DNA of 64,000 nucleotides, taken from a virus. The translations under genes were made by a program, and so were the position numbers. The notes below the pieces were generated by a model. The model made no database searches and was not told the origin of the DNA. It worked only from the letters and a program-made list of their open reading frames with translations. The stretch is taken from the IMG/VR virus record IMGVR_UViG_3300045988_117710. The stretch is one strand, 5' to 3'. Position 1 is the stretch's first letter, and the number at the start of each line of letters is the position of its first letter. Shown piece after piece: positions 1 through 61,738 of this stretch.

Positions 1-222
1 TCTCAATCCGATGATGGTGTTTCTGAACTTTCAGAGAAGGAAAGAAATTTATACAATCAAGTTCCTTTGTGTGATAGGTTTCATAACAATTTAGATATTA
101 TGAGATTGAAGCCAGTTGATTGTTCTATTCGTGATAAAGATTATAAGTATACATCTAGAGATGTTGCAGGATATTTACAGTTATTTAAGTTTAGAGATTA
201 TTTAATAAAGAGAGGGTGGTAA
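1..222 (+). CDS. 3' end of a gene entering from upstream (hypothetical protein, C-terminal 73 aa)
   Basis: Open frame from position 1 to TAA at 220-222; next gene follows 3 nt later with RBS. Confidence 0.45.
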   Translation, partial: SQSDDGVSELSEKERNLYNQVPLCDRFHNNLDIMRLKPVDCSIRDKDYKYTSRDVAGYLQLFKFRDYLIKRGW

Positions 223-225
223 GTA

Positions 226-417
226 ATGGAATATACAGTTATTCTAAAAGATAAGACTTTGAGATATAACAATAAGAAAGATATAGCTACTTTCTTTGGT
301 GTTTCTGAACAAACAGTGGAGTCTTGGTTGTTAGGTAAATGTAAACCTAAAAAGAAGTTTAATATTGTTCAAGTATATGTTGATGGTTTACTTATTTTAG
401 ATTTCACTGGGAGGTAA
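226..417 (+). CDS. hypothetical small protein (63 aa)
   Basis: ATG with GAGGGTGG RBS; tight coupling to downstream gene. Confidence 0.5.
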   Translation: MEYTVILKDKTLRYNNKKDIATFFGVSEQTVESWLLGKCKPKKKFNIVQVYVDGLLILDFTGR

Positions 418-422
418 GATTG

Positions 423-692
423 ATGAGAGATGATGTTTTTAGAGTTTCTACAAGTACAGATCCAAGGAAGTTGGCTCAAGCTGTTATGAATAAGGTTCAG
501 TTTAGTGTTAATACTCCTGTACTAAGTTGTTTGGGTGCAGGTGCAATTAACCAAGCTGTTAAAGCACTTTCTATTCTTATAGGTATGGGTTCTACAATTG
601 GTTTAGATATTTATTTCAAATCTCACTTTGAGGTTAGAGAATTAGATGGCGAAGAGAAGACTTTTATAAACTTCAAAGTTTATAAGATATAA
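423..692 (+). CDS. SpoVS-like protein (stage V sporulation protein S family)
   Basis: GGGAGG RBS; segments CLGAGAINQAVKALSIL and DGEEKTFINFKV align with SpoVS AIGAGALNQAVKAVAIA ... DGEERTAIKLIV; about 89 aa, the SpoVS size. Confidence 0.65.
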   Translation: MRDDVFRVSTSTDPRKLAQAVMNKVQFSVNTPVLSCLGAGAINQAVKALSILIGMGSTIGLDIYFKSHFEVRELDGEEKTFINFKVYKI

Positions 693-705
693 GTCTTCTT
701 TTTAT
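656..705 (+). terminator. putative rho-independent terminator (nested hairpin gaagact...agtcttc + T-run)
   Basis: Inverted repeat overlapping stop codon, followed by TTTTTAT. Confidence 0.35.
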
Positions 706-858
706 ATATTAATTTAGAAGTAAAGAAGTATTTTATTGTAGTATGTTTGTATTATGGAGTAGAAGAATTTATAGTTACTTTTGATAGGTGATTTTATAAT
801 GGTTGATTTTCAAGGTCCTTCTATTTCATTTTGTTTAAAGTGATTAGGAGGACTTTTT

Positions 859-2829
859 ATGTTTTTCACAATTAATGACATTATCACTGGGAAGAAATAT
901 AATGTAAATGTTATGTGGATTACATCTATGAAGAATGGTGATGATTCACAGTCTGCTCCTAACTTTGAGTTATTGTTGTATCAAGGTGACGGAGGACGTC
1001 CTTTGGTAGAATCATATGCTTCAGCTGCTGAGAGAAAGGAACGTAGAGATACTATTGTTGAAGCAGGTTCATTTTTCGAACTTAATAGTATTCAATACAA
1101 TCTTGTTTGGGTTCAGTCTGTTGCAAAGGTAAATGCTGGTGATCCATTATATGATGGTAACTTAGCACAGAAACCTGCTGTTTCTATTACATTTGCTAAT
1201 GGTAGAACTATTTATGGTCAGTTTGATACTGAACAAGCAAGAGATGAGTTCTATGACTTATTAATGGAGTCAATGCTTAGTGGTGGTTTAGTTCAAAGAG
1301 ATACTTTTGATGATTTTCCTAAGAAGGGGAATCCTGGATGTGTTTATCTAGCGAAGGATACAGGTATTACTTACTATTGGGATAAGGTTCTTAAGCAGTA
1401 TGTAACAACTGGTTCTGGTGGTCGTAAAGGTGTCTATGAGGCAATTAATGATTTACCTACTACTCTTGGTCAAGTGGTTACAATTAATAAGTCAGATTTA
1501 AGAGAATTGGTTAAGCCAACAGTTGATTTCATGGAGACTTCTGATGTAATTGATGATGAAGGTACTCGTGGTGTTATTATTGCTAATAATGATACTACTG
1601 TAGATATATGTATTATACCAGACAAAACTATTGATTCATTTAAGCAAGTCGCTACTGAAGCTGATTTACCAGAAACTGGGAAGACTAACATATTATTATA
1701 TGTTCAAGATATAGATGAGTTTAGAATTTGGGATGATAATGTACCTGGTTGGGTAGATCCATTCCATCCTATTAGATTTGAGAGTGATATTACTCCAGAG
1801 ACTGCTAGAACTAATACTCTTTATATTGATGAGACAGAAGCAAGATATACATCTGACAATGTTGAGTGGAAGTATATTACTTCTGAAGCAAGACCTTATC
1901 AGAAGGGTACTACTTACTATAAGGGAATGTTAGTCTATAGAGACAATATTTTAACTAAGGCAACAGTTACATTTAAGTCTAATGCAACAGTTAGTAAGAA
2001 TACTGCAGAAGCATTTACTTATGACTTAGATAAAGGAAATCTAGAAGTAATAATTGATGCTTACACTAGAACTAATGTAATGTATGATTTGTCTGACCAA
2101 CTTGATGAAGATACTCAAGAGTTTAATTTACCTGCAGGAGTAACTCCAGAACGTTCTGTTCTAGTATTCTATGCTGGTCAGTTATTAATAGAGGGTGTCA
2201 ACTACATTATCGATTACACTAATCAGAAGTTAAGATTATTGTTCGAAGAGGATCCAGATTCATTAGAAGATAGACATCTGACAATGATTATTGGTAACAT
2301 TGAAGCACCGGCTGGTGTTAGAACTGTTACTGGTATTATTCCTGGATTGGTTGATAATACAGATCCATTTAATCCTGTCATTGGTCATGATGATACTAAG
2401 ATTGATAAGAGTATTGCTAATCGTCTTGTATCTAATACTGATGTTACAGAGGTAGATGGTGCTGTGGATATGACTTTCACTTATGCAGATACTGATGATG
2501 GTTCTATTTCTGCTAAGAAGGTTATATTCAAAACACCAAATGATAATATTAAGTTTAAGGTTAATAATGTAACACCTCAAATCAGAGAGATTGAAATTTC
2601 TGCATTTGGTGCTGCAGAGGTAACTGAACGAGCTATTACATTTGATGGTACTTCTAGGGAGTTTGATTTACCTATTAATGTTGATACTACTAGACCTTTA
2701 GTAGTTATGATTAATGGGTTAGCATTAACTTCTGGTGAAGATTACGACTATGTTATAGTCGGAAATAAGATTAAGTTTACATATGTGTTTGAGGTGGATT
2801 CAAATGCTGTAATAGTAAACTTTAAATAG
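859..2829 (+). CDS. virion structural protein, probable tail fibre/receptor-binding component (656 aa)
   Basis: AGGAGG RBS; large ORF; first of four contiguous large structural genes. Confidence 0.65.
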   Translation: MFFTINDIITGKKYNVNVMWITSMKNGDDSQSAPNFELLLYQGDGGRPLVESYASAAERKERRDTIVEAGSFFELNSIQYNLVWVQSVAKVNAGDPLYDGNLAQKPAVSITFANGRTIYGQFDTEQARDEFYDLLMESMLSGGLVQRDTFDDFPKKGNPGCVYLAKDTGITYYWDKVLKQYVTTGSGGRKGVYEAINDLPTTLGQVVTINKSDLRELVKPTVDFMETSDVIDDEGTRGVIIANNDTTVDICIIPDKTIDSFKQVATEADLPETGKTNILLYVQDIDEFRIWDDNVPGWVDPFHPIRFESDITPETARTNTLYIDETEARYTSDNVEWKYITSEARPYQKGTTYYKGMLVYRDNILTKATVTFKSNATVSKNTAEAFTYDLDKGNLEVIIDAYTRTNVMYDLSDQLDEDTQEFNLPAGVTPERSVLVFYAGQLLIEGVNYIIDYTNQKLRLLFEEDPDSLEDRHLTMIIGNIEAPAGVRTVTGIIPGLVDNTDPFNPVIGHDDTKIDKSIANRLVSNTDVTEVDGAVDMTFTYADTDDGSISAKKVIFKTPNDNIKFKVNNVTPQIREIEISAFGAAEVTERAITFDGTSREFDLPINVDTTRPLVVMINGLALTSGEDYDYVIVGNKIKFTYVFEVDSNAVIVNFK

Positions 2830-2847
2830 TTTAGAGGAGAAATTTAT

Positions 2848-4239
2848 ATGGCAACAACAAAAATCTCAGTCCAACAACTTTCAGAAAAGTTATTTAAGTT
2901 AGTTGGTAGAAATTATCTATTTACAGATAAGACAAATGTCACATTTGATGCAACTGAAAACACAATTACTAGATCTATGTTATTAAATGCTGACAATGTA
3001 GTTCCTACTTGGGAAGAAGTAGAAAGAGCTGCTATTGTATTTATAGTTGATTCTACAAAGAATACAATTAAAGCAACTGCAAAGATAACTGCTAAAGATT
3101 CTACAGCAGACAATGTTAAAGTTTTAGTTGATAATACTTCTACTGAAGTAAACGCTAAATTAAAAGAATTAGAAGAAAATATTAAGACTAACAAAACTAA
3201 TATTGAAACTAATGCTGCTAACATAACTACTAATGCAAATGATATTGATGCTTTAGAAGGTAGAATGGATACTGCTGAAGCTGACATTGATGCTTTAGAA
3301 GGTAGAATGGATACTGCTGAAGCTGATATACTTGCTAATGCTGGTAACATTACTCAAAATGCTGCTGACATTGATGCTCTAGAAGCAAGAATGGCTACTG
3401 CAGAAGGTAATATTACAACAAATACAAATAATATAGCAACTAATGCTTCTAATATTGCAACTAATGTATTAAATATTACTACTAATACAAATGATATTAA
3501 AGCATTGAAAGAAAAGACAGCTACTGAAGAAGCTGAATTAGATGCTTTAACTGAAAGAGTAACTAAGAATGAAACTGATATAGCTGAAAGAGTTACTAAA
3601 ACTGAAGCTGCTACTTTTGTTAAAGATATAGCTTATGATGCTACTACTTGCAAGTTTACTTTCACTATGTATGATGACTCTACTGAAGAAGTAGACTTAC
3701 CATTAGAAAGTACTGTTAAGGGTGGTCGTTATGATGCTGATACTAATACTTTAATACTTATTTTAAATGATGAAGCTGGTACAGAAATTGAAATTCCTGT
3801 TGAAGACTTAGTTGATATCTATACTGGTTCTGAAAATGACCAAATTAAAGTTGAAGTTTCTGCAGATTATATTGTTAGTGCTGCTCTTAAGACTGGTTCA
3901 ATTGATGAAACATTCTTTACTACAGCATTACAAGAAAGATTAAATGCCTTAGAAGCAAAAGATGTAGATTTACAAGAACAAATAGATGCAATTGATCCAT
4001 CTGTTGCTGCTAAGATTACTGGTATTGAATTAACACCAGATGGTCAAAAGACTACTTTCGATGTAGGATTCGAATTAGCTGAGACTGATATAGTTGATTT
4101 ATACTATAATGGGCTTAGAGAATTAGAAGGTAAAGGTTATACAGTAGATAGAACAGCAGGTTCTAATGGTTCAGTTACAACTTTATTTGATGTTCCTGCT
4201 GAAGTTGGAGATACTTTATACATCGAAGTTACTAGATAA
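2848..4239 (+). CDS. tail fibre protein with coiled-coil heptad/tandem repeats (463 aa)
   Basis: AGAGGAG RBS; N/T/A-rich coiled coil with repeated NITTN / DIDALEGRMDTAEA units. Confidence 0.7.
   Translation: MATTKISVQQLSEKLFKLVGRNYLFTDKTNVTFDATENTITRSMLLNADNVVPTWEEVERAAIVFIVDSTKNTIKATAKITAKDSTADNVKVLVDNTSTEVNAKLKELEENIKTNKTNIETNAANITTNANDIDALEGRMDTAEADIDALEGRMDTAEADILANAGNITQNAADIDALEARMATAEGNITTNTNNIATNASNIATNVLNITTNTNDIKALKEKTATEEAELDALTERVTKNETDIAERVTKTEAATFVKDIAYDATTCKFTFTMYDDSTEEVDLPLESTVKGGRYDADTNTLILILNDEAGTEIEIPVEDLVDIYTGSENDQIKVEVSADYIVSAALKTGSIDETFFTTALQERLNALEAKDVDLQEQIDAIDPSVAAKITGIELTPDGQKTTFDVGFELAETDIVDLYYNGLRELEGKGYTVDRTAGSNGSVTTLFDVPAEVGDTLYIEVTR
3241..3324 (+). repeat. perfect 42-bp tandem duplication (2 copies, degenerate third copy about 3361-3408) inside tail fibre gene
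   Basis: gatattgatgctttagaaggtagaatggatactgctgaagct x2 (one synonymous change); encodes DIDALEGRMDTAEA x2. Confidence 0.9.
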
Positions 4240-4266
4240 TTCAATAGGAGAAAAGGAGTTTAATTT

Positions 4267-6741
4267 ATGCAAAAATTAAATAGACAACAACTTCCTGTAG
4301 ATGTATTAAATGAATTATATGGTAAGGCAAACCAAGTTTACGTAGATGAGAAGTTCAATGAATTCTCATCTGCGGTAAACTCAACATCATCTGACTCAGG
4401 TGACTATGCTATAATGCCTTTTAATAATGAAGCTCCTGTTGTATATACAATGCAAAACCGTAACATAGATAATGTTGAAATAGACGGTTCAGTAGGTTAT
4501 AAAGATAATCTACCTGGTGGTTATGTATTTACAGGTGCTGCTGATTCTTACAGAAATAAAACATTTAACCGTATCAAGGTATTCGTTAAAGTACCTGGAT
4601 GGGTTAGAATAGGTATTGTAAGAGGTACAGGTTATGGAATGGGTAAAGACCAAGGTGATGGTGTTGCAAGAGGTATATTCAAAGCCAATGCTAGATATGA
4701 TGCAACAGATGTGTATCCTTCATCATTGGTTAAGGGTGTTGAGGATTCAACAGCTGATGACCAAGCTCATGCAACATTAAAGAAATGGTTAGTAGTTCAA
4801 TATGCTGCTACTGTAGGTGTTCATGAGTACGATTTTGAAGATGAAATTATAACTTCACCATTTGAATACATTTATGAAGAGAGTAGATCAGGAGTTGCTG
4901 GGTTTGTTTATAATAAATCTGGAGCTGCTGTTACAACAGGTAATACAACAATTCCTAATGGGGTTGCTAACACAGGTTTAACATATCCAACAGCTGCAAT
5001 TTCAGCTACAAACCTTTGTGATGGTCAATATCCAATTTCTGATAATATGTTAGATACTTCTGCAAGATTAGCTTACTTTAATGAAAAATCAGCCAGAGGT
5101 GGTGGATATCATAGAAGTTGGACAGGTATTAAATATAACCAAACAGACAAAACAATAGATATATCTCAACATAGAGGTGACTTAAATATAGGTTTATATA
5201 GAAGAGGTGTTAGTGGTACTAAATATTTACAACCTGTTATTGAAAATGCCTTAACTAGAAATATATCAATAAGTGAAACTAATACTGGTCATATAAATGG
5301 ATATGGTCCTAAATATGAAGACCAACAATTATTAGCACAAACTGGAGCTAGAATATATGCTATTGAAGTAATCATAGCAGAACCTGGTGACTTATCATTC
5401 TTTGTATTTAGTTCTAATGATCCAGCTACTTGTAGAATATTAAAACACTTTACATTGAGAACAAGAGGTATAGGTAAGCAACTTATCCATTTACCTGAAG
5501 ATGTTATTTTACAAGAAGGAAACTGGTGTGGTGTAGAAGGTATTACACAAGCTGTTACTTTTAATAGACCTATAGCAAGTGAAGTATTCTCAAGTGGTAC
5601 TACATTAGCACAAGGTTATGCAGATACAGCAAAATTTGTTTATCGTGATCCATCTTCAGTAAAGAATTGGACATGTAAAGGTGATGATCCAACAGCAATT
5701 CAAGATTTAATACCATTTAGTTCAGCTACAGGTACTAGAAGTTCTGGATTCCAATTTTGGAAAGGTGTTCAATATATACCGGGAGCAAATGCAGGTGAAG
5801 GTTATGTTGATTTCACAAATGCATCTATAGTAGAAGACAATACAAACTACTTAAATATATGTCTAGTTGTAAGAGATGAACCAATATCTAAATTAGAAGA
5901 TTTATGGTGTTCTATTACAGGTGACTCAATATCTACTTATACAGGTGTTGTTTCAAAAGCAGATGATTACGGTATGACTTATCTTAATGCAGCTGGTAAT
6001 AACTCATGCTTTTATCCAAAGAATGCTAGTGGATTTACAAACTGTATTGATGCAACTTGGTGGGGAGCTTTAATTAAACAAACAAGAATGAGATTATTAA
6101 GAAACGATGCATGGTCAGGTTCAAGAGTATCTGGAACTGATTCAGATACATCATCAACAGCTTGTGCTTCTGATATAAGATCTGTATTGTTACGTAACAT
6201 TTCATTCCCAACATATGAACCAGTAAAAGAATCAGGTAAATATACACACCCATTTGGTACACCTGATATTGTATTTACTTGTATAGGTACAAATGACTTA
6301 GCAGGTGGGGTAACACCAGGATCTTATTCAAATGAACAACCTGCTGATATTTCAACAATATTAAGTGCATTTGAAAGAATGGTTGGTAAGCACAAAGCAA
6401 ACTATCCACAATCAATATTAGTATACTTTGTTCTACCAAGAGGTTCTAGTGTTTATCCATATACAAATGCAACAACTGGATTCTCAATAGCTCAAATGGC
6501 TGCTTCATTTGAATATATTGCAAAAGCAATGGGAGTATACTTTGTACCACTTTCATATTTCAATGCTTTAAATGCTAATGAAGCCAGTGCAACATTTGTA
6601 TGGACTCCAAATAGTGCTACACTTCATAAAAATAGTACAACATTTGATGGAGCAGTAACAACTGATAAATTACACCCATCAGCTACAGGACACCAAATCA
6701 TAGCAAACGCTTTACAAAGATTCTGTGAACAAATAGTTTAA
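4267..6741 (+). CDS. tail-associated protein with C-terminal SGNH/GDSL hydrolase (esterase/deacetylase) domain (824 aa)
   Basis: GGAG RBS; SGNH blocks: ITGDSISTY (block I, catalytic Ser), FTCIGTNDL (GxND block III), DKLHPSATGH (DxxH block V). Confidence 0.7.
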   Translation: MQKLNRQQLPVDVLNELYGKANQVYVDEKFNEFSSAVNSTSSDSGDYAIMPFNNEAPVVYTMQNRNIDNVEIDGSVGYKDNLPGGYVFTGAADSYRNKTFNRIKVFVKVPGWVRIGIVRGTGYGMGKDQGDGVARGIFKANARYDATDVYPSSLVKGVEDSTADDQAHATLKKWLVVQYAATVGVHEYDFEDEIITSPFEYIYEESRSGVAGFVYNKSGAAVTTGNTTIPNGVANTGLTYPTAAISATNLCDGQYPISDNMLDTSARLAYFNEKSARGGGYHRSWTGIKYNQTDKTIDISQHRGDLNIGLYRRGVSGTKYLQPVIENALTRNISISETNTGHINGYGPKYEDQQLLAQTGARIYAIEVIIAEPGDLSFFVFSSNDPATCRILKHFTLRTRGIGKQLIHLPEDVILQEGNWCGVEGITQAVTFNRPIASEVFSSGTTLAQGYADTAKFVYRDPSSVKNWTCKGDDPTAIQDLIPFSSATGTRSSGFQFWKGVQYIPGANAGEGYVDFTNASIVEDNTNYLNICLVVRDEPISKLEDLWCSITGDSISTYTGVVSKADDYGMTYLNAAGNNSCFYPKNASGFTNCIDATWWGALIKQTRMRLLRNDAWSGSRVSGTDSDTSSTACASDIRSVLLRNISFPTYEPVKESGKYTHPFGTPDIVFTCIGTNDLAGGVTPGSYSNEQPADISTILSAFERMVGKHKANYPQSILVYFVLPRGSSVYPYTNATTGFSIAQMAASFEYIAKAMGVYFVPLSYFNALNANEASATFVWTPNSATLHKNSTTFDGAVTTDKLHPSATGHQIIANALQRFCEQIV

Positions 6742-6754
6742 TGAGGAGGATAAT

Positions 6755-8194
6755 ATGGTCACTATAGAAAGAGAAACATATTACACATTAGACGAAATTA
6801 ACTCATTGATTAGTAACGGTCAAGTTGCCGCTGCTAATCAATGGGAAGTTTACGAACTTTCTTATAATAGTGGTTTTAGTGTTGGTTGGAACCTGTGTAG
6901 AATGTTTGTCAATAAACATACTGGAGCAGTAACGGGTATTCTTGGAATGGAAGGAATGTCTGGAAGTTCTAATAATACTATATTGACTAATAGTAACCTA
7001 GGTATTCATGCAGATATGAAAATAAAATGGCCTGGATTACAAGTCTATACTACAACTACATCAGCAGCTTCTGCGGCTACTAAGAAAGCAGCTAGTCTGT
7101 TTAATATTAGAGTAGAAACAGATGGGACATTTATAGGTCAAGGTCATGGTTTTACTAGATCTGAGCTCGAGACACATATAGAGAATTTCTTCTATATAGG
7201 TTCTAAATATGGTAAGATTACAACTGAGGATGCTAAACCAATTTATCTTCCAGAAGGTACATTTTATAATAAAAATGCAGTTGACCTATTAACTGGTAAA
7301 GCTTGGTTTAAATATACGGTACCTTTAAACTCAGAAGCATACACAGATGACTCGAGTTTAACCTTTTATAAAAATCTATGGTCAGCTGAGTGTATAGTTC
7401 AATATGATTTAAAACCAGTTACAGCAAACACATATCCGAGTATAAGTGTTCCTAATAGATTCATGCCTTACTTAAATTTAACTTTATATCCAAAGATTAG
7501 ATACCTATCACCTGCTTCATCTAACACTCAAGCAAAAGAAAGATGCTATATAAGATTAGGTGGGAATGAGTTTTATCTAGGTGGTGTTCCTTCAGGTACA
7601 ACCAGAATTACAGGTTCTAACTTCTATATAGGAGTTGAAGAGGGAGCTATAGGATTAGATACAGAAACTGGAAAAGGTTTATGGAATAGAGATGCATCTG
7701 TTCAAGTACCTTCAGCTGAAAATACTGTTTTTGGTAATTTAAGAGATAACAACATTAGTCGTGTAGATATCACAGGAATGATTGTTAGTGGATATGTTAA
7801 AAGAGATGGATACCAATGTCATGTTATCAGATCGAGAACAGGAATGGTTAATTTTGCTGCAGCTATGAAAGTAAATAGTACAACATTAGCAGATCCATTA
7901 TTCAATAATTTCACAGCTGCTTGGAGACCAAGTTATAAATACAGGAGATCTACAATAACAGCATCTGGAGTACAAACAGTATATTTTGCTTCACCATCAT
8001 TTATGTCACTGGTAGTAGATACTACTCCTAGTCATAGATCGTATACAGCAAATATATGTTTAAGAACCAACCAAACTAGCGGTGGAGATGATGCGAAGAT
8101 AAAAGCACCGTCTTACGGTACTACTGGAAATATTTCACCAACTGTCGGTAATAATCTAATATGGCAAGGTTGGTATTTAGCAGATAATACATAG
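6755..8194 (+). CDS. putative receptor-binding/tail fibre protein (479 aa)
   Basis: GAGGAGG RBS 8 nt upstream; position after fibre genes. Confidence 0.6.
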   Translation: MVTIERETYYTLDEINSLISNGQVAAANQWEVYELSYNSGFSVGWNLCRMFVNKHTGAVTGILGMEGMSGSSNNTILTNSNLGIHADMKIKWPGLQVYTTTTSAASAATKKAASLFNIRVETDGTFIGQGHGFTRSELETHIENFFYIGSKYGKITTEDAKPIYLPEGTFYNKNAVDLLTGKAWFKYTVPLNSEAYTDDSSLTFYKNLWSAECIVQYDLKPVTANTYPSISVPNRFMPYLNLTLYPKIRYLSPASSNTQAKERCYIRLGGNEFYLGGVPSGTTRITGSNFYIGVEEGAIGLDTETGKGLWNRDASVQVPSAENTVFGNLRDNNISRVDITGMIVSGYVKRDGYQCHVIRSRTGMVNFAAAMKVNSTTLADPLFNNFTAAWRPSYKYRRSTITASGVQTVYFASPSFMSLVVDTTPSHRSYTANICLRTNQTSGGDDAKIKAPSYGTTGNISPTVGNNLIWQGWYLADNT

Positions 8195-13448: not shown

Positions 13449-13458
13449 GGTGGTTTTT

Positions 13459-14634
13459 ATGAAAGAGTTTGTTATTAAGAATGAACTTATGATGTTCATT
13501 GAGGAGCATGAGGATTGGAAGGTTCTATTAGCTTCTGATCCTTATAATCTAATTATTAAGGAAGATGAGGATTTTCCTAATGTTTATTTATTCAAGTATA
13601 ATATGTTAGAGTCTGATATGTATCAGAAGATTTCCCAAGAAGCGAGAGGTTTAATAGTTGAGGTTTCTGAAGTAGCTGGTAGACGTGTGACTAAGATGTT
13701 AGCACATTCTTTTGATAAGTTCTTTAACTATACTGAACCTCAAGGTGTTATGGTTCTAGAGAATTTCAATTGGGATAATTATAGTTTCCAAGAGAAGAGA
13801 GATGGATCTCTTATGAGATTGTGGTTCTATAAAGATAAGTGGGTTGTATCTAGTTCTGGTACTATTGATGCTCATAAAGCCAATATTCAGATTCCTAGTG
13901 TAGGTTATAATTCATTTGGTGATATGTTTGATGCTATTATTAAGAAGTATGATGTTGATTTTGATTCTTTAGATAAGGGGATAACTTATTCATTTGAGAT
14001 GACTTCACCAGACAATAAGATAGTAGTTGATTATGACTCTGATGAGCTTACTCTTATTGGTATGAGAGTTAACAAGTTGAATATGGAGCTTGATCCTATA
14101 TCTTTTAATCCATTTAAGGATATTAAGGTTGCTGAGAGATTTGAGTTTACTTCTCTTGATGATGCTTTATCTATTATTAATAATAGAACGAATTTTGAGG
14201 GCTTGGTTTTGGTTGATTCTAGTTTCAATCGTGTTAAGATTAAGACTGAGGAGTATTTAGCTTTAGCAAAGATGTCTGACATGGCAAGTTCTGATAGAGG
14301 TATCTTAAGGATGATTCTAGCTGGTACTATAGATGATGTTGCAAATCGATTACCACATTTACAACCACGAATTGATATCGTTAAGGGTTTTGTGGAATCA
14401 GAAATTACTAATATTAAGCAGTTGATTAGTACTGTTGATTTTACTCAAGATAGAAAGACAATTGCTCTATCAGTTAAGGATAGTCCTTATGCTAGGTTTG
14501 TATTTCCATTGATTTCTAATCCTGATCAGGATGTTATTGGAGCTTATTTTGTGTCTGATAACTTGGAGAAGATTTACAAATCTTATAAGGAAAGGTTCAA
14601 TTTAAGTGAAGAAACTGAAGAAGAAGTCATATAA
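13459..14634 (+). CDS. RNA ligase, T4 Rnl1-like (391 aa)
   Basis: GAGGTGG RBS; motif I QEKRDGSLM (KxDG nucleotidyl-Lys); upstream blocks EARGLIVE / FDKFFNYTE parallel T4 Rnl1 ECRGIMFE / MEKFFNLNE; size matches Rnl1. Confidence 0.7.
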   Translation: MKEFVIKNELMMFIEEHEDWKVLLASDPYNLIIKEDEDFPNVYLFKYNMLESDMYQKISQEARGLIVEVSEVAGRRVTKMLAHSFDKFFNYTEPQGVMVLENFNWDNYSFQEKRDGSLMRLWFYKDKWVVSSSGTIDAHKANIQIPSVGYNSFGDMFDAIIKKYDVDFDSLDKGITYSFEMTSPDNKIVVDYDSDELTLIGMRVNKLNMELDPISFNPFKDIKVAERFEFTSLDDALSIINNRTNFEGLVLVDSSFNRVKIKTEEYLALAKMSDMASSDRGILRMILAGTIDDVANRLPHLQPRIDIVKGFVESEITNIKQLISTVDFTQDRKTIALSVKDSPYARFVFPLISNPDQDVIGAYFVSDNLEKIYKSYKERFNLSEETEEEVI

Positions 14635-16370: not shown

Positions 16371-16575
16371 TTGGGTTATAGGTGATTTACTAACTGCTAG
16401 AGAAATGATTGATGTTATTGTTAGAGATTTAGAATCTAATGGTAGAACTCATGTAGATTATGTTCTAGAGAAGTTAGAAAGAGCAGAGAATATTTTAAAT
16501 AATATTAATGGGTTATGTTTAAGAAATTCTAATAAAGGAGTGAAGAAAGATGAAGACACAAGTTCAAGTAATTAG
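16330..16575 (+). CDS. hypothetical protein (81 aa)
   Basis: GAAGGGAAG RBS. Confidence 0.45.
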   Translation: MPLIVKDKYLEKNSWVIGDLLTAREMIDVIVRDLESNGRTHVDYVLEKLERAENILNNINGLCLRNSNKGVKKDEDTSSSN

Positions 16576-16978
16576 GACCTATGATAGAAGTGTTTTTGAA
16601 AAACAACTATCTGAAGCTTATGCAAGTAAGGATGTAGTTAATGTTAATACTCATACCGAGTCTTATTTCAATGGAAGGGATTTAGTTATCTATTATATAG
16701 CAATTGTGTTCTATAAGGAGAATGTTGGTGAGATTGCTTTAGTGAATAGGTCTAAGTCAGATATTCTAGTTAGTAATTTAGGATTAAATTCTAGAGCTTA
16801 TGGTGTGTTGGTTAGACATAATAGACATATGACTCTTGGTGATCTTGTTGATTTAATAAGATCTGGTAGTATTTATAAGATGAAGAATATTGGTGGTACT
16901 ACTGTAACTCAAATTAAGGAGAGATTAGTTGAGTTAGGTTTAGTTAAGGAGGAGAGTTCAAATGGCAAAGATAGATGA
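16550..16978 (+). CDS. hypothetical protein (142 aa)
   Basis: AAAGGAGTGA RBS. Confidence 0.55.
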   Translation: MKTQVQVIRTYDRSVFEKQLSEAYASKDVVNVNTHTESYFNGRDLVIYYIAIVFYKENVGEIALVNRSKSDILVSNLGLNSRAYGVLVRHNRHMTLGDLVDLIRSGSIYKMKNIGGTTVTQIKERLVELGLVKEESSNGKDR

Positions 16979-17266: not shown

Positions 17267-18934
17267 ATGGTTAATGTTTTCTTTATTAGTGATTTACATC
17301 TTAATCATGGCAATATTATTGATTATTGTGATCGTCAGTTTAATAGTATTCAGGAGATGAATGATACTATTGTTAGGAATTGGAATAGTGTTGTAGGTCC
17401 AGATGATATAGTTTATTTTCTAGGTGATTTTGCTTTAGGTAGAGATGTAGATAAGGTTTATGAGGAGTATTCGAAGCTTCTGAATGGCACTATCTATTTC
17501 TTAAGAGGAAATCATGATAAGTCTAGATCTGTTGTATCTAGGTATTTTAATTTAATCGATACAGGTACGACTGTTTCTTATAATGATTCTCATTTCATTC
17601 TTTCCCATCATCCTTTATATGATTCAGAGATTCCTAAGGGATATGTTAATCTTCATGGTCATATTCACAATAACAAGTTGAGTAGGGTTTATGATTCTGG
17701 ATGTCATTTTAATGTTTCTGCTGATGTTACTGATTTCACACCATATTTCGTAAAGAATATTATAGATGATATTTCCTCTGGTTCTTTAGTTCCAAAGAGA
17801 ACTGGGGTTGATAGAGTTAGGAAGGATGATGGTAGTATGAGAAAGTTAGCTACAGTGCAAACTATTTTAAATGTTGAACCTATACCTGATGCTGATGCAA
17901 TTGAGGTTGTTACAGTTAAGGGTTGGAAGGTTGTTGTAAAGAAGGGTGAGTATCAAGTTGGTGATAAGGTAGTTTATTTCGAAATTGATTCACTTATTCC
18001 AAGAAGTTCAATAACAGAGTTTTTGATGGAAGATGAGTATATGTTGTCTGCTAGATTAAGAACTAGAAAATTAAGAGGTCAAGTATCTCAAGGTTTAGTT
18101 ATTTCTTTAGAAGATTCTCTTGTTATGGCTGAAGAGTTAAATGGTGCTGTTGAGTTATTTGATACTGATGATGGTACAGATGTTTCTGATTTACTTCATG
18201 TTGAGAAGTATGAACCACCTGTTACTTATGGTAACGAGGGTAGATGTGTTGCTTGGCCATTTACATTGACTAAAACTGATGAAGAGAGAATTCAAAATAT
18301 TCCTGAAGTTATTGATAAGTTGATCGAGAATGGAACTCATTTATGTATTTCAGTTAAGTTAGATGGTACTTCTATGACTGTAGTACATCAACCAGATGGT
18401 ATTCATGTAGCTGGTAGAAACAATGATTTTGATAAGACAGATGATTTTGCTTTCAATAATAAGTATTGGTCTACAGCTCGAAGATATGGTGTTACAGATG
18501 CTTTAGAAGAAGCCCATATAAATAATCCAGACAAATACTTTGCTGTTCAAGGTGAGTTAGTTGGTCCTGGTATTCAAGGTAATAAGATGAATTTATCAGA
18601 TTTGAATTATTATATCTTTAACTTATTTGTTTCTGAAGATGAATGCAGAACTTGGAAGAAGTTAGGTTATGAAGAATTAGTTCAGTTCTGTATTGATTAT
18701 GATCTTACTCATGTTCCTTATATTTATTCAGATTTCGAATTGAAGGCACATGGTTTAGTAGATGTTGATAGTATTCTTAAGTTTGCGGAAGGTACTTATA
18801 GAGATAATGCCGAGGGTTATTTCCCAAATGCTAAAGCCAATCAACAAAGAGAGGGGTTAGTGTTTAGAACTCTTGATCATCAATTCTCTTTTAAGGTTGT
18901 TAATAATATCTTCTTACTTAAGGGAGGAGAATAA
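17267..18934 (+). CDS. fusion of calcineurin-type metallophosphoesterase (N) and polynucleotide ligase-like nucleotidyltransferase (C); candidate RNA-repair healing/sealing enzyme (555 aa)
   Basis: AAGGAGG RBS; N: FISDLHLNHG / LGDFALGRD / RGNHD phosphoesterase motifs; C: SVKLDGTSM (motif I KxDG), VQGELVG (III), REGLVFR (IV). Confidence 0.7.
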   Translation: MVNVFFISDLHLNHGNIIDYCDRQFNSIQEMNDTIVRNWNSVVGPDDIVYFLGDFALGRDVDKVYEEYSKLLNGTIYFLRGNHDKSRSVVSRYFNLIDTGTTVSYNDSHFILSHHPLYDSEIPKGYVNLHGHIHNNKLSRVYDSGCHFNVSADVTDFTPYFVKNIIDDISSGSLVPKRTGVDRVRKDDGSMRKLATVQTILNVEPIPDADAIEVVTVKGWKVVVKKGEYQVGDKVVYFEIDSLIPRSSITEFLMEDEYMLSARLRTRKLRGQVSQGLVISLEDSLVMAEELNGAVELFDTDDGTDVSDLLHVEKYEPPVTYGNEGRCVAWPFTLTKTDEERIQNIPEVIDKLIENGTHLCISVKLDGTSMTVVHQPDGIHVAGRNNDFDKTDDFAFNNKYWSTARRYGVTDALEEAHINNPDKYFAVQGELVGPGIQGNKMNLSDLNYYIFNLFVSEDECRTWKKLGYEELVQFCIDYDLTHVPYIYSDFELKAHGLVDVDSILKFAEGTYRDNAEGYFPNAKANQQREGLVFRTLDHQFSFKVVNNIFLLKGGE

Positions 18935-18935
18935 T

Positions 18936-19730
18936 ATGAAGTATTTATTTCACTTCGCTATGATGAAGGAGTGTCCTACTGAGTTTATTAAGTTACCAGA
19001 AGGTGTACATGATGATTTAAGTGGAGATGATATTGTAGGTTTATTTGATACCATTTATCCTAATATTAAGTTTTGGGTTTCTGGTGTTGGATGCAATAAT
19101 GTCCTTTATCCTGATTATGAAGTGGTTAATTATCTTAAGACTTGTGATTATGTTTATAGTTTTGGTTTATCTGGTTCTATTAATGATAATCTTAAAGTTG
19201 GAGATTTGGTTAATGTTCATAGTGTTAATAATCTAGATGTTAAGATGCCTGGGTATGGATTAGGTTGTACTGATGATTTTGATGCAGATTGTTTAGGTTG
19301 TTCAAAGTCTAATCTTACAGCTTTATCTGATTTTAATACTAGGGTTATCTGTTATACTTCTAATCGATTTGTTACGAAGGAGTATTTAGATTTCTTATTT
19401 GGTGATAATTCTGATGATAATTTAGATGATTTCTATGATGATGCTTTTAATGTAGCATTTGATGAGAATGTGATTACTTCTTTAGCTTTAGGTTTTATTG
19501 ATGAACCAAAGAAAGATTGTATAGTTTGTGAGATGGAACTATTCTATCTTAAGAAGTTTGTTGATATTATTAATAAGTCTTGTCCTGTATGTGCTTATAA
19601 GTTAGTTTCTGATATAGTATGTAAACCTGATAATTATGAAGAGTATGAAGGTTCTTTACAAACTCTATTATCTAGTTTACATTTTGCTGTAGGAGCTGCT
19701 GTTAAGGAGTTAGGTTCAGATGGAGAATAG
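18936..19730 (+). CDS. PNP/UDP-family nucleosidase-like protein (MTA/SAH nucleosidase-like), 264 aa
   Basis: GGGAGGAG RBS before ATG 18936; FGLSGSINDNLKVGDLVNVHSV resembles MTAN TGSAGGL..LKVGDVVI; C-terminal EMELF resembles MTAN EMES; assignment tentative. Confidence 0.45.
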   Translation: MKYLFHFAMMKECPTEFIKLPEGVHDDLSGDDIVGLFDTIYPNIKFWVSGVGCNNVLYPDYEVVNYLKTCDYVYSFGLSGSINDNLKVGDLVNVHSVNNLDVKMPGYGLGCTDDFDADCLGCSKSNLTALSDFNTRVICYTSNRFVTKEYLDFLFGDNSDDNLDDFYDDAFNVAFDENVITSLALGFIDEPKKDCIVCEMELFYLKKFVDIINKSCPVCAYKLVSDIVCKPDNYEEYEGSLQTLLSSLHFAVGAAVKELGSDGE

Positions 19731-19731
19731 T

Positions 19732-20220
19732 ATGAAGGTTCAGTTAGCAGATATTACTTTTGATTCATGTGTAGATGGTCCTGGGTTAAGAACTGTTGTG
19801 TGGTTGTCTGGGTGTTCTCATAGATGTCCAGAGTGTCATAATGAACGTTTACAGGATTTCCATTATGGTTATTCCATGGATGTTAATGAGTTAGTTGATA
19901 CTTTATCTAGTTCGAAGAGGATAACTTTCTCTGGTGGTGATCCATTGTTTCAAGTGAATGCTTTAGATGAGATTATTGGTTCTCTTGATCCAGAGACAGA
20001 CATTTGGATTTATACTGGTTTTACTTTAGATAAAGCCAAGGAGATTCTGATGGATAAGCCAAATCTTAGAGAGTCTGAATTTACTATTAAGTGTGGTAAG
20101 TTTGATAAGAGTCTTAAGGATCCTAGTTGTAAGTTTAGGGGTTCTAGTAATCAAAGGATTTATCATTATATTAATGGTATCTTTACTGATATCTCTGACA
20201 AGATTGATAATAGAAAATAA
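19732..20220 (+). CDS. NrdG-like radical-SAM activating enzyme (anaerobic RNR / glycyl-radical activase family), about 162 aa
   Basis: SCVDGPGLRTVVWLSGCSHRCPECHN matches the NrdG GCxxxCxxCxN signature and size. Confidence 0.65.
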   Translation: MKVQLADITFDSCVDGPGLRTVVWLSGCSHRCPECHNERLQDFHYGYSMDVNELVDTLSSSKRITFSGGDPLFQVNALDEIIGSLDPETDIWIYTGFTLDKAKEILMDKPNLRESEFTIKCGKFDKSLKDPSCKFRGSSNQRIYHYINGIFTDISDKIDNRK

Positions 20221-20279: not shown

Positions 20280-20528
20280 ATGTATTCTCATAATTATAAA
20301 GGTTTACCTTATAAGCAAAGTGTTAAGCGATTTGAGAAGGATTATCGTATTAGATATTGTTTGTATGGTAAGTATTCCAAATGGAGAACTGCTTCTGGGA
20401 AGAAGATTCGAGTTAAGGATTTAGATTATCACCATTTAATTAATATTGTTAATTATTTTGGGAATACAAAGATTCGAAATGATTATCCATTTGTTTGGTA
20501 TAGATATGTGAAAGAGGTGGTATTGTGA
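20280..20528 (+). CDS. hypothetical basic protein (82 aa)
   Basis: AGAGGTGA RBS. Confidence 0.5.
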   Translation: MYSHNYKGLPYKQSVKRFEKDYRIRYCLYGKYSKWRTASGKKIRVKDLDYHHLINIVNYFGNTKIRNDYPFVWYRYVKEVVL

Positions 20529-21565
20529 AGAAGTTCACAGCAACAGTTTTAATGGGTTATCCTGGTTCTGGTAAGACTAGAGCAAGTTCTTATAAGCATT
20601 TAAGAACTAATGATGCTTTATATCTATCTTCTGATGATTTAAGAGTAGAGATGTTTGGTTTCAGAGATCAGGAGCATAATAAGGAGTTATTCGAAGAGTT
20701 ATATAAGAGAGCAATCAATTATTCTGATAAGGGAGATGTTTTAATTGATTCTACAGCTCTTACTAGAAAAGATAGATTGAGGGTTATTGCAAAGCTTGGT
20801 AAGTACTTCAATATGAGATTAGTAGTAGTTGTCAGACCTATTTGGGAGATTGTGGAGGAGAATCAAATCAGAAAGGTTTCTAAACCTGAAGAGTATATTC
20901 CTGAACCAATCTTTAAACAGATTCTTGGTAGATTTCAATTACCTACTTATGATGAGGGTTGGGATGAGATTAGTTTTTGTTTCAATTCTTCTATTGAAGA
21001 ACATAATGATCCTAATCTATTATTAAAATGTTTTTATGATTTAGATAAGGTTGAAGATATTGCACATGATAATCCACATCATCCAGAGTCAATCAAGGAA
21101 CATGTTAATTATGTTTTAGGTAAGGTTAAGGAAGAGACATCAAGTTTTGTATTAGAGTCTATTGCTTATTATCATGATTTAGGTAAATTTTATGTTATTC
21201 AGTATAATGAAGAGAAAGGATATTCTCAATGTATTGGTCATGCAGCTGTTTCAGCTTATATCTATTTGACAGATTTCTTGATTAGGGCTGTTTTAGATTC
21301 TATTGAGAAAGATGACTTTACTAATCCTTTTAGTAATTTAGAGTTTCTTTTAATTTATTATGGAGTGTTCTATCATGATTATCCTTATTCATTTACTGAT
21401 TTTGAAGATATGGTTAGTTCTTTAAGTAAACCTAGTAAACCATTGATTCATTTATTTAAAAATCTTAATGATGGTTTAGTTGGTATTTCTATGAGAGAGT
21501 TTACAAGAATGTTAATAGATTTTAATTGTTATGATAGAATGAGGGAAGGTGATTCAGATGAATGA
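20525..21565 (+). CDS. P-loop polynucleotide-kinase-like domain fused to HD phosphohydrolase domain (346 aa)
   Basis: Walker A MGYPGSGKT; HD motifs HHPESIKEHV ... YYHDLGK; GTG start with GAGGTGG RBS. Confidence 0.65.
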   Translation: MKKFTATVLMGYPGSGKTRASSYKHLRTNDALYLSSDDLRVEMFGFRDQEHNKELFEELYKRAINYSDKGDVLIDSTALTRKDRLRVIAKLGKYFNMRLVVVVRPIWEIVEENQIRKVSKPEEYIPEPIFKQILGRFQLPTYDEGWDEISFCFNSSIEEHNDPNLLLKCFYDLDKVEDIAHDNPHHPESIKEHVNYVLGKVKEETSSFVLESIAYYHDLGKFYVIQYNEEKGYSQCIGHAAVSAYIYLTDFLIRAVLDSIEKDDFTNPFSNLEFLLIYYGVFYHDYPYSFTDFEDMVSSLSKPSKPLIHLFKNLNDGLVGISMREFTRMLIDFNCYDRMREGDSDE

Positions 21566-25629: not shown

Positions 25630-26517
25630 ATGGTTTATGTAAATGGAAATGCAACTGTTTCTATTGATGACAATGGGAGAAGAGTTGTTGAGTGGCCAGA
25701 TGGTGAGGATTTAAGATTAGAGTATCCTTTAAGTATTGATTTAAATATTTCTAATAGATGTTCTAATGGCTGTACTTATTGTTATGCTGGTAATACTCCA
25801 ACTGGTAGGGTTGCAGATTTCTTGACAATGAATTACTTGGATGATATGTTAGCTGGTAGTGAGATTGCTATCAATATTCAATATCCTTTACCAGAGAATT
25901 TTGAGTTCTGGTTAGAGAAGATGAAGAAGCAAGGTGTAATTGTTAATGCTACTATTAATCAATTAGATTTTGAAAGAGATGAAGCTATTATTGATCAGGT
26001 AGCTGATTGGCAAGATAGAGGTTTATTACATGGTATAGGTATTTCATATCGAAGTAATAATTACATTTATGATAAGATAGGGAAACTTAAGAATGTTGTT
26101 ATTCATATGATTGTTGGTATTCATACTCTTGAAGAGATTAGAGCAATGTTATTGAATTATAATGTTTTAGTTCTAGGTTATAAGTTCAAAGAGCGTGGAA
26201 TTACTTATAGTCAAATGAATCAGTTTGTTTCTTCTAGTATTGAGATGTTAAAGCTTCGTGCTGACGAACTTCTTAAGAGTGTTGGTCGTGGGGTTTTATG
26301 CTTTGATACTAAGGCGGTTGAACAGCTTGAACTTAAGAATCATTTATCTGAAGAAGATTGGAATACTTATTATCAAGGTGATGAGGGAACAATTTCATTT
26401 TACATAGATGGTGTCAAAGGTACTTTTAATACTGATTCTCATACTAATGATGAACCAATTCCTATTGATGGAATGTGTATTAAAGATATGTTTAGAGTAA
26501 TAAGAGAGAAGGTGTAA
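25630..26517 (+). CDS. radical SAM enzyme (295 aa)
   Basis: NISNRCSNGCTYCYAG = CxxxCxxC [4Fe-4S]/SAM motif; no SPASM-type C-terminal Cys cluster. Confidence 0.7.
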   Translation: MVYVNGNATVSIDDNGRRVVEWPDGEDLRLEYPLSIDLNISNRCSNGCTYCYAGNTPTGRVADFLTMNYLDDMLAGSEIAINIQYPLPENFEFWLEKMKKQGVIVNATINQLDFERDEAIIDQVADWQDRGLLHGIGISYRSNNYIYDKIGKLKNVVIHMIVGIHTLEEIRAMLLNYNVLVLGYKFKERGITYSQMNQFVSSSIEMLKLRADELLKSVGRGVLCFDTKAVEQLELKNHLSEEDWNTYYQGDEGTISFYIDGVKGTFNTDSHTNDEPIPIDGMCIKDMFRVIREKV

Positions 26518-28356: not shown

Positions 28357-28842
28357 ATGTATACGAATACTGAGATGTATCAACACGCGAAGTTAGAATT
28401 AGATAAGTTGTTAGAACTTGAGAGAAAGGATAATCTTAAACGTTCTGTAGAAGAGTTAGAGAACGAAGTTGCAATGTTTGATGGCAAGACTCCACAAGAG
28501 TTTATGAATGATGCTATTCTTAATGTTATTGCTTCTATCAATTCAGAAATTAATTCTTATAATTCTATGGATTATTTACTTAATACTGTTTATGATTTAG
28601 TTAAGTTTAGAAATCTTACACCACTTACTTTAGGAGATGAAGAGTGGGTTCATGTTTTAGATGATCCTGATAGAGGAAGTGTTTATCAGAATATTAGAAA
28701 CTTTGCAGTGTTTAAAGATGACAAGAATGGTGTATATCATTCTGATGGACAAGAGATGCTTAATATTGCTTGTGGTAAGTATCCAGAGTCTGGTGAAGTA
28801 ATGGAAGTTTATCAAGATAATGAAGGAGAGTCTAATGAGTAG
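28357..28842 (+). CDS. hypothetical protein (161 aa)
   Basis: GAAGGAG RBS. Confidence 0.6.
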   Translation: MYTNTEMYQHAKLELDKLLELERKDNLKRSVEELENEVAMFDGKTPQEFMNDAILNVIASINSEINSYNSMDYLLNTVYDLVKFRNLTPLTLGDEEWVHVLDDPDRGSVYQNIRNFAVFKDDKNGVYHSDGQEMLNIACGKYPESGEVMEVYQDNEGESNE

Positions 28843-61678: not shown

Positions 61679-61738
61679 TGTTTCTATATATTTTAAAGAA
61701 CAATAAGTTGTATATTATTATAGAATAGGAGGGCTATT

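Follow-up and report, generated by a model that had tools for sequence, protein, structure and literature searches.

What does a gene of the SpoVS family do in a bacteriophage, and does it reveal the host? SpoVS received its name 30 years ago and, to our knowledge, has yet to be given a biochemical function. Genetic work on B. subtilis and B. thuringiensis connects it with polar septation, the expression of sigE/spoIIE, late sporulation and genes that depend on sigma-D (PMC8510167, PMC2732212). In viromes, matches to viral 'spoVS' are routinely tallied as auxiliary genes for sporulation, and such genes have been reported from peat soil (PMC6172770) and from marine oxygen-minimum zones (PMC8940887). 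The same question is raised by a small gene in the 64-kb stretch of viral DNA analysed here (the window), which a preliminary description had read as a phage copy of spoVS that may manipulate host development and that indicates a Bacillus/Clostridium-type host.

Reading frame, start signals and constraint

423-692 (including the stop codon), + strand: SpoVS-family (PF04232, predicted Alba-fold) gene, from the ORF list, Pfam, AlphaFold2 (AF2), Foldseek and dN/dS
409-414, + strand: Shine-Dalgarno sequence GGGAGG of the SpoVS-like gene, from the sequence and a survey of Shine-Dalgarno (SD) sites
226-417, + strand: 63-aa ORF, weakly HTH-like (sub-threshold Pfam HTH_28/HTH_Tnp_ISL3)

The SpoVS-like frame on the + strand opens with ATG at 423 and closes with TAA at 690-692, for a product of 89 aa; with the in-frame TTG at 420 as the start, the product would have 90 aa. 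Its GGGAGG (409-414) is located 8 nt 5' of the ATG and overlaps the end of the 63-aa ORF, whose stop codon is at 415-417, and this overlap suggests translational coupling of the two frames. Pairwise Nei-Gojobori comparisons of the window gene with five relatives gave dN/dS of 0.05-0.13, a range that refers to the close relatives with unsaturated dS. Moreover, a protein 99% identical to that of the window (P0001) is encoded on at least 41 metagenomic contigs. The gene is genuine and under strong purifying selection. A chance ORF or a decaying, functionless remnant, for which nothing speaks except the small size, is a virtually negligible explanation of 423-692, being refuted by the full-length Pfam match (E=1.3e-14), the strong SD, the low dN/dS and the number of contigs.

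Family membership and predicted fold

The similarity to SpoVS along the whole length, on which the preliminary description was built, was borne out by the Pfam search that it had proposed. PF04232 (SpoVS) scored 54.1 bits (E=1.3e-14), well above the gathering cut-off of 24, with positions 1-82 of the 83-position model aligned to residues 4-86 of the product. The two motifs it had quoted are also present, GAGAINQAVKA at residues 38-48 and DGEEKT at residues 75-80, and they agree with the family patterns GxGAxNQAxKA at the start of helix 2 and [DN]GEE[KR]T in the beta3-beta4 hairpin. In all, three family motifs are kept, namely [KR]VS..[ST].P..LA (beta1-alpha1), GAGAxNQAVKA and DGEE[KR]T. Within the phage branch described below, GAGAxNQAVKA is invariant or nearly so and the DGEE[KR]T hairpin largely so, and both are common to cellular SpoVS. 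PHROG 35646 ('sporulation protein') matched the product with E=1.1e-8, and the NCBIfam search returned no model at E<=1. The sole solved relative found by sequence was the SpoVS-related protein of Thermus thermophilus (2EH1/2EK0), with E=2.3e-7 for the single sequence and 5e-12 for a profile of the phage branch.

An AlphaFold2 model built from 16 sequences had a mean pLDDT of 94.7 and beta-alpha-beta-alpha-beta-beta topology. When this predicted model was compared with the PDB by Foldseek, 2EH1/2EK0 came top (TM 0.87-0.88, rmsd 1.4 Å over 85-86 residues) and the fourth-best match was 9a7h chain B, from an integrative model, based on cross-linking, of the complex between B. subtilis SpoVS and YunD. 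The SpoVS structures were followed by archaeal Alba/Sso10b, Rpp20/Rpp25 and other proteins of the Alba superfamily. Thus, the product is predicted to take an Alba/IF3-C-type fold that superposes on solved SpoVS. This agrees with published work, in which SpoVS was assigned to the Alba fold and its nucleic-acid binding was predicted from fold and modelling (PMC2732212, PMC11621453). The product has a pI of 8.9 and a net charge of +2, and members of the phage branch are mildly basic in general (pI 8.9-9.3).

Metagenomic proteins with tandem SpoVS domains also exist, carrying two domains (P0018, P0020, P0023, P0024) or four (P0019, P0025). Since such natural two- and fourfold fusions occur, they suggest that the dimer is the working unit of the family. 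One four-domain SpoVS protein came from a EukProt transcriptome (Chasmostoma nieuportense). In P0022, a repeat protein of 3,329 aa for which 8 SpoVS-like stretches had been reported, our profile check detected none.

Divergence from cellular SpoVS

The alignment comprised 193 SpoVS domains, that is, 50%-identity representatives, labelled genomic and phage copies, Thermus 2EH1 and B. subtilis SpoVS. The representatives were drawn from a search of 1.84 billion proteins, in which only 6 of them matched the window protein at E<=1e-10 and 268 at E<=1e-3. Nearly all of the closest representatives are metagenomic proteins without a name. The B. subtilis reference behind the identity figures is presumably accurate; it was checked indirectly, through its 83% identity to representative P0128, and its length and its identity to the window protein fit the 86-residue 9a7h_B (31% in Foldseek). 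Identities to B. subtilis SpoVS were as follows.

Window protein: 31% (alignment), 34% (BLASTP)
Thermus 2EH1: 57%
Chloroflexi SpoVS: 55-58%
Clostridia MAG SpoVS: 66%
Faecal Bacilli MAG SpoVS: 54%
Stenotrophomonas phage TS-12 SpoVS: 71%
Human gut phage contig MT835471 SpoVS: 70%
Lysinibacillus phage LysYB1 SpoVS: 64%
Bacillus phage KLEB27-3 SpoVS: 46%

The window protein, which shares 32% identity with Thermus SpoVS, therefore does not reach the conservation of orthologues in this data set (at least 55% across phyla). In the neighbour-joining tree it fell outside the cellular SpoVS cluster and grouped only with the metagenomic sequences P0015-17, P0021, P0035/P0167-9 and P0074. Every member of this group whose surroundings were read is on a phage-like contig of 126-189 kb, next to tail-fibre, holin, homing-endonuclease, HNH or UDG genes. 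By its sequence relationships, then, the window protein belongs to a divergent, phage-borne and apparently old branch of the SpoVS family that is separate from the cellular proteins. It does not look like a recently captured host spoVS, because its 31-34% contrasts with 55-66% among cellular proteins and 64-71% for host-like phage copies. Phage SpoVS proteins thus seem to be of two kinds, one host-like and recently captured in appearance, the other a divergent branch to which the window gene is an addition, among the phage-encoded SpoVS/Alba-like proteins already known.

Gene neighbourhood

859-6741, + strand: tail-fibre/receptor-binding-like module of 656-aa, 463-aa coiled-coil and 824-aa GDSL/SGNH proteins, from domains and synteny

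The window and its closest relatives share one gene order: Metallophos, DEAD/ResIII helicase, 5'-3' exonuclease, the 63-aa HTH-like ORF, the SpoVS-like gene, and the genes for the 656-aa, 463-aa coiled-coil and 824-aa GDSL/SGNH proteins. The 824-aa protein has a C-terminal GDSL/SGNH domain and weak matches to tail-fibre PHROGs. In the relatives, the proteins encoded at this tail-fibre-like position carry domains of the phage tail Collar, F5/8 type C or Laminin_G_3 families. These data confirm the statement in the preliminary description that the gene is next to genes of tail-fibre type. In three relatives whose SpoVS-like protein is 76-80% identical (L008, L009, L026), a divergently transcribed DNA polymerase A (PolA) module replaces the upstream side, and the SpoVS-like gene is still immediately before a gene for a protein of about 650 aa and fibre genes. 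A more distant relative (L007, 57% identical) keeps the exonuclease upstream and large proteins downstream. Thus, rearrangements have left the SpoVS-like gene in a fixed place, on the 5' border of the tail-fibre module. Beside the PolA gene, a 67-aa gene on the - strand (L008:2873-3076, L026:1937-2140) showed a faint to weak Pfam match to ribosomal protein S21.

This adjacency raises the possibility of a structural or assembly role, in which the protein would be part of the virion or a chaperone for the adjacent tail-fibre proteins. The adjacency is invariable across rearrangements, and a 42%-identical homologue on an unrelated 126-kb phage contig (L029) is again among tail-fibre (XkdV_N, Mtd_N) and holin genes. 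We nevertheless consider such a role quite unlikely. Among relatives the fibre genes vary (GDSL; Collar and F5/8 type C; Laminin_G_3) and the SpoVS-like protein is highly conserved; a chaperone dedicated to a particular fibre should show the reverse pattern. Such chaperones are usually encoded downstream of the fibre gene that they serve. In another contig (L030) the homologue adjoins HNH and UDG genes instead. Furthermore, we know of no chaperone or virion role for the Alba fold.

On its 5' side the gene is abutted by the co-oriented 63-aa ORF, which L027 and L028 share at 84-92% identity and L008 and L026 lack; the 64-aa gene that precedes the SpoVS-like gene in L030 is unrelated to it. Since the 63-aa ORF is limited to relatives with the Metallophos/helicase/exonuclease arrangement upstream, the SpoVS-like gene does not depend on it as a partner. 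A search for a conserved partner gene found that the 63/64-aa ORFs ahead of the SpoVS-like gene are unrelated between lineages, which rules out a two-gene cassette.

The surroundings of cellular spoVS are of another kind. In a faecal Bacilli MAG (L013, JBGVCT010000003.1, 2555-6243), spoVS is two genes downstream of rny, for RNase Y (RNase_Y_N, KH and HD domains), and ymdB, for a PF13277 metallophosphoesterase. Among the cellular loci this neighbourhood was seen only in the Bacilli MAG and not in Chloroflexi, whose spoVS is near MurJ, homoserine dehydrogenase or GyrA. The rny-ymdB-spoVS context was also not found in the window, where the gene is between the phage replication and tail-fibre modules.

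The context of the cellular gene bears on another possibility, that the protein binds and regulates a host or phage metallophosphoesterase, nuclease or RNase Y pathway, without nucleic-acid binding of its own. The partner in the fourth-best structural match is YunD, which we take to be a metallophosphoesterase-family protein; spoVS adjoins ymdB and rny in the Bacilli MAG; and a 315-aa Metallophos gene is present about 4 kb upstream in relatives that share the upstream arrangement of the window. This possibility appears rather unlikely, however. The Metallophos neighbour is lost in PolA-module relatives (e.g. L008, L026) in which the SpoVS-like gene stays, metallophosphoesterases are common in large phages, and the Chloroflexi loci do without the rny-ymdB neighbourhood. 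A literature search for the paper behind the 9a7h YunD-SpoVS model found none.

A promoter-like motif and a leader hairpin

703-717, + strand: promoter-like motif TATATATTA-N3-TAG, directly after the stop codon of the SpoVS-like gene
812-856, + strand: conserved hairpin in the leader of the 656-aa gene (start 859), from minimum free energy (MFE) and covariation

The motif TATATATTA-N3-TAG is located at window positions 703, 8517, 25372, 39219, 40604, 44704 and 61063, with a variant, TATATATTT, at 61685. The raw count of the 9-mer TATATATTA, 8 exact copies against 4.2 expected, is not significant alone, and what stands out is its bias and conservation: all copies are on the + strand, seven of the eight are intergenic, at 20-160 nt upstream of genes, and the motif is invariant across relatives. 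The genes preceded by it include those for the tape-measure protein and the 656-aa protein of the fibre module. It is probably a phage-specific promoter, recalling the T4 late TATAAATA, and the promoter-like copy at 703 would mark the start of the next transcription unit. In four relatives a copy is found 25-35 nt before the SpoVS start (L007:1998, L008:7968, L009:452, L026:6965), which suggests that the SpoVS-like gene is transcribed from the phage's own class of promoters. A scan for terminators found none near the SpoVS-like gene, and sigma-70-like promoters were no more numerous than by chance.

A stricter version, with TATATATTA as a T4-like late promoter and the SpoVS-like gene as a late gene, was rejected as unproven, since small genes of unknown function and a DNA-polymerase-exonuclease-like gene likewise have the motif upstream. 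As the motif precedes genes of several functional classes and is not specific to late genes, late expression of the SpoVS-like gene is not established.

In the hairpin at 812-856, an anti-SD segment, GGUCCUUCUA, pairs with and sequesters the Shine-Dalgarno sequence UAGGAGGACU of the 656-aa gene. With an MFE of -19.9 kcal/mol (z=-3.8), this leader is more stable than those of all other genes compared in the window (37 in total), and 5 of the 19 pairs of the hairpin have compensatory changes. It is kept in all six relatives, including one (L027) with an extra gene between the hairpin and the SpoVS-like gene. Rfam models searched against the whole window gave nothing at gathering thresholds. The hairpin suggests translational control of the first gene of the tail-fibre module. 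One may speculate that the SpoVS-like protein is an RNA-binding post-transcriptional switch that acts on this hairpin or similar leaders and times fibre synthesis. We regard this as highly unlikely; if true, it would be the first biochemical function for any SpoVS-family protein, and cellular SpoVS, encoded beside RNase Y, might be suggested to act on RNA too.

The phage and its probable host

All of the 60-odd ORFs in the window are on the + strand, with 30-35% GC (32% overall). They include T4-type baseplate genes (gp25-like, gp5 OB domain, gp6/J-like wedge, hub), a tape-measure protein of 1,127-1,130 aa with an M23 peptidase domain, two RNA ligases, a DNA ligase, a DnaB-like helicase, an SbcCD-like pair, a C5 DNA methylase, an NrdG-like radical-SAM activase and a Tad3 anti-Thoeris homologue. 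The baseplate and tape-measure genes, ligases and helicase, the single coding strand and the low GC confirm the preliminary assignment of the gene to a phage. Against 50,697 phage records, megablast of window positions 1-8000 gave no match and tblastn of the SpoVS-like protein gave 6 distant matches only; a pattern scan of IMG/VR found no relative. Several contigs that carry P0001 are 185-189 kb long. Because of the T4-type baseplate and tape-measure genes, the lack of a relative among phage records and the length of the P0001 contigs, the window is assigned to an uncultured myophage of about 188 kb, known only from metagenomes.

Some other genes deserve mention. The 161-aa protein at 28357-28842 (+) matched Pfam PF25185 (Tad3, Type I Thoeris inhibitor; E=2.2e-20, 73 bits against 27) and is a candidate anti-defence gene. 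The RNA ligase genes are located at 13450-14634 and 17267-18934 (+); the first resembles T4 RnlA, the 'tail fibre attachment catalyst', and the second has a phosphoesterase fused at its N terminus. Both are followed by an AAA_33/KTI12-like kinase at 20525-21565, and the two ligases and the kinase are a possible tRNA/RNA repair set able to counter host anticodon nucleases. A 142-aa protein at 16550-16978 (+) had a sub-threshold match to the C-terminal domain of bacterial RNA polymerase alpha (E=1.4e-4, 22 bits against 23.8) and, if this match is real, could be a transcription-takeover factor.

With regard to the host, the claim that the gene itself indicates a Bacillus/Clostridium-type bacterium was not supported. 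PF04232 is also present in Chloroflexi, Thermotogae and Deinococcus-Thermus (PMC2732212), and our GTDB matches to the SpoVS-like protein include Chloroflexota. In Stenotrophomonas phage TS-12 (L010, MW302330.1 10909-11184), whose record names a Gram-negative non-sporulator, Stenotrophomonas, as host, the SpoVS is 71% identical to that of B. subtilis. This exceeds the identity between the Bacillus and Clostridia copies and implies either recent transfer from a Firmicute or a doubtful host assignment. A SpoVS-family gene therefore cannot diagnose the host, being found in non-sporulating phyla and in a Stenotrophomonas phage. The scan of GTDB genomes gave only cellular genes of 31-40% identity and no prophage or binned copy, and searching the literature for the accessions of the sample and run returned nothing.

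Other features give independent, if weak, clues. GGAGG-type SD sites precede 38 of 63 starts against a background of 12%, and such strong sites argue against a Bacteroidota host. An NrdG-like 4Fe-4S/radical-SAM activase at 19720-20220 (+) (Fer4_12, E=8e-29), of anaerobic nucleotide reduction, and a second Fe-S oxidoreductase-like protein at 25630-26517 (+) (PHROG 16999, E=8e-29) point to an anaerobic host. Remote protein similarity was nearly confined to phages of Gram-positives: the PolA of a relative matched phages of Staphylococcus (288), Microbacterium (196), Bacillus (176), Listeria, Clostridium and Enterococcus at 24-35% identity, the baseplate protein matched Bacillus and Streptococcus phages, and the helicase matched Microbacterium and Rossellomorea phages. 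Taken together, the SD sites, the 32% GC, the NrdG-like gene and the polymerase and baseplate similarity make a low-GC Gram-positive anaerobe a plausible host. Pfam and PHROG searches of the roughly 60 ORFs of the window found no host-specific cell-wall-binding domain and no other sporulation-type gene.

Possible functions of the SpoVS-like protein

The reading that we prefer, and to which we give an about even chance, is that of a functional phage gene for a small, dimeric, nucleic-acid-binding regulator of Alba fold that serves the phage itself and represents the divergent SpoVS branch. By analogy with Alba and with proposals for SpoVS, the protein would form a homodimer, and the homodimer would bind nucleic acid (RNA or DNA), as is established for Alba and proposed for SpoVS. 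It may then serve the phage's own programme, in gene expression or genome handling at the switch to expression of structural genes, and any effect on host circuits of sporulation, motility or septation would be a secondary or additional consequence. Replacement of the host SpoVS is less likely. The position of spoVS beside rny and ymdB in the Bacilli MAG hints at a tie to RNA metabolism. Against a nucleic-acid role counts the net charge of only +2, far less basic than Alba. Against a role in the phage only counts the retention of the family motifs, with which an interaction with the partners of host SpoVS would be compatible despite the divergence.

On the other hand, the protein might mimic or compete with host SpoVS and thereby alter sporulation, septation or the choice between motility and biofilm; by keeping the cell from entering dormancy, for instance, it could allow the lytic cycle to be completed. 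This is possible, though we find it doubtful. Mutations of SpoVS alter polar septation, sigma-E/spoIIE expression, late sporulation and sigma-D-dependent genes (PMC8510167; PMC2732212, citing Resnekov 1995 and Perez 2006). Phages of spore-formers carry sporulation regulators (PMC10294663), viral spoVS has been interpreted as an auxiliary gene (PMC6172770, PMC8940887), the host is plausibly a low-GC Gram-positive anaerobe, and all three family motifs are kept. However, a systematic survey of gut and isolate phages listed 31 sporulation genes as enriched in phages of spore-formers, and spoVS is missing from that list (PMC10294663). The family is found in non-sporulating phyla and in the Stenotrophomonas phage, and the 64-kb window contains no further sporulation-type gene. 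The protein is only 31-34% identical to cellular SpoVS, where cellular orthologues share at least 55% across phyla and host-like phage copies 64-71%. The divergence thus weakens the idea of interference with host development, and the kept motifs maintain it as a possibility. The reading of the gene as a manipulator of sporulation and the Bacillus/Clostridium host deduced from it go beyond the evidence.

By itself, the SpoVS-like gene is a fairly ordinary small accessory or regulatory gene of a phage. Its lesson is that viral PF04232 matches are not automatically sporulation genes. At least some viral SpoVS hits appear to fall in an old branch that is specific to phages and distant from the cellular proteins, and it is therefore unsafe to read them as sporulation manipulation or as markers of spore-formers. 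Moreover, a strongly selected phage branch with a fixed position would be a tractable handle on the bacterial role of the SpoVS/Alba-like fold.

Comparison with known systems

The SpoVS of B. subtilis (P45693) and its cellular orthologues resemble the window protein in being single domains of 86-90 aa with the three motifs and the beta-alpha-beta-alpha-beta-beta fold. The window protein differs in that it is phage-borne, shares only 31-34% identity where the cellular orthologues share 55-66% across phyla, and is encoded outside the rny-ymdB neighbourhood. The best structural match is the Thermus thermophilus protein 2EH1/2EK0, with 30-32% identity; its origin in an organism that does not sporulate shows that the family extends beyond sporulation.

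The archaeal Alba/Sso10b and eukaryotic Rpp20/Rpp25 proteins share the predicted fold (TM 0.6-0.75, Foldseek E 6e-5 to 1e-3), and the Alba superfamily of dimeric DNA/RNA-binding proteins is the basis of our functional inference. The window protein is only 12-20% identical to them; Alba is far more basic, and the SpoVS-specific DGEE[KR]T hairpin is acidic.

Among phages, annotated PF04232 members are known from Lysinibacillus phages vB_LfM_LysYB1/2, Bacillus phage vB_BauM_KLEB27-3, Stenotrophomonas phage TS-12, the gut contig MT835471 and PHROG 35646. These copies are mostly 64-71% identical to B. subtilis SpoVS (46% in KLEB27-3) and 26-34% to the window protein. They are located among small early-type genes, whereas the window gene heads a tail-fibre module.
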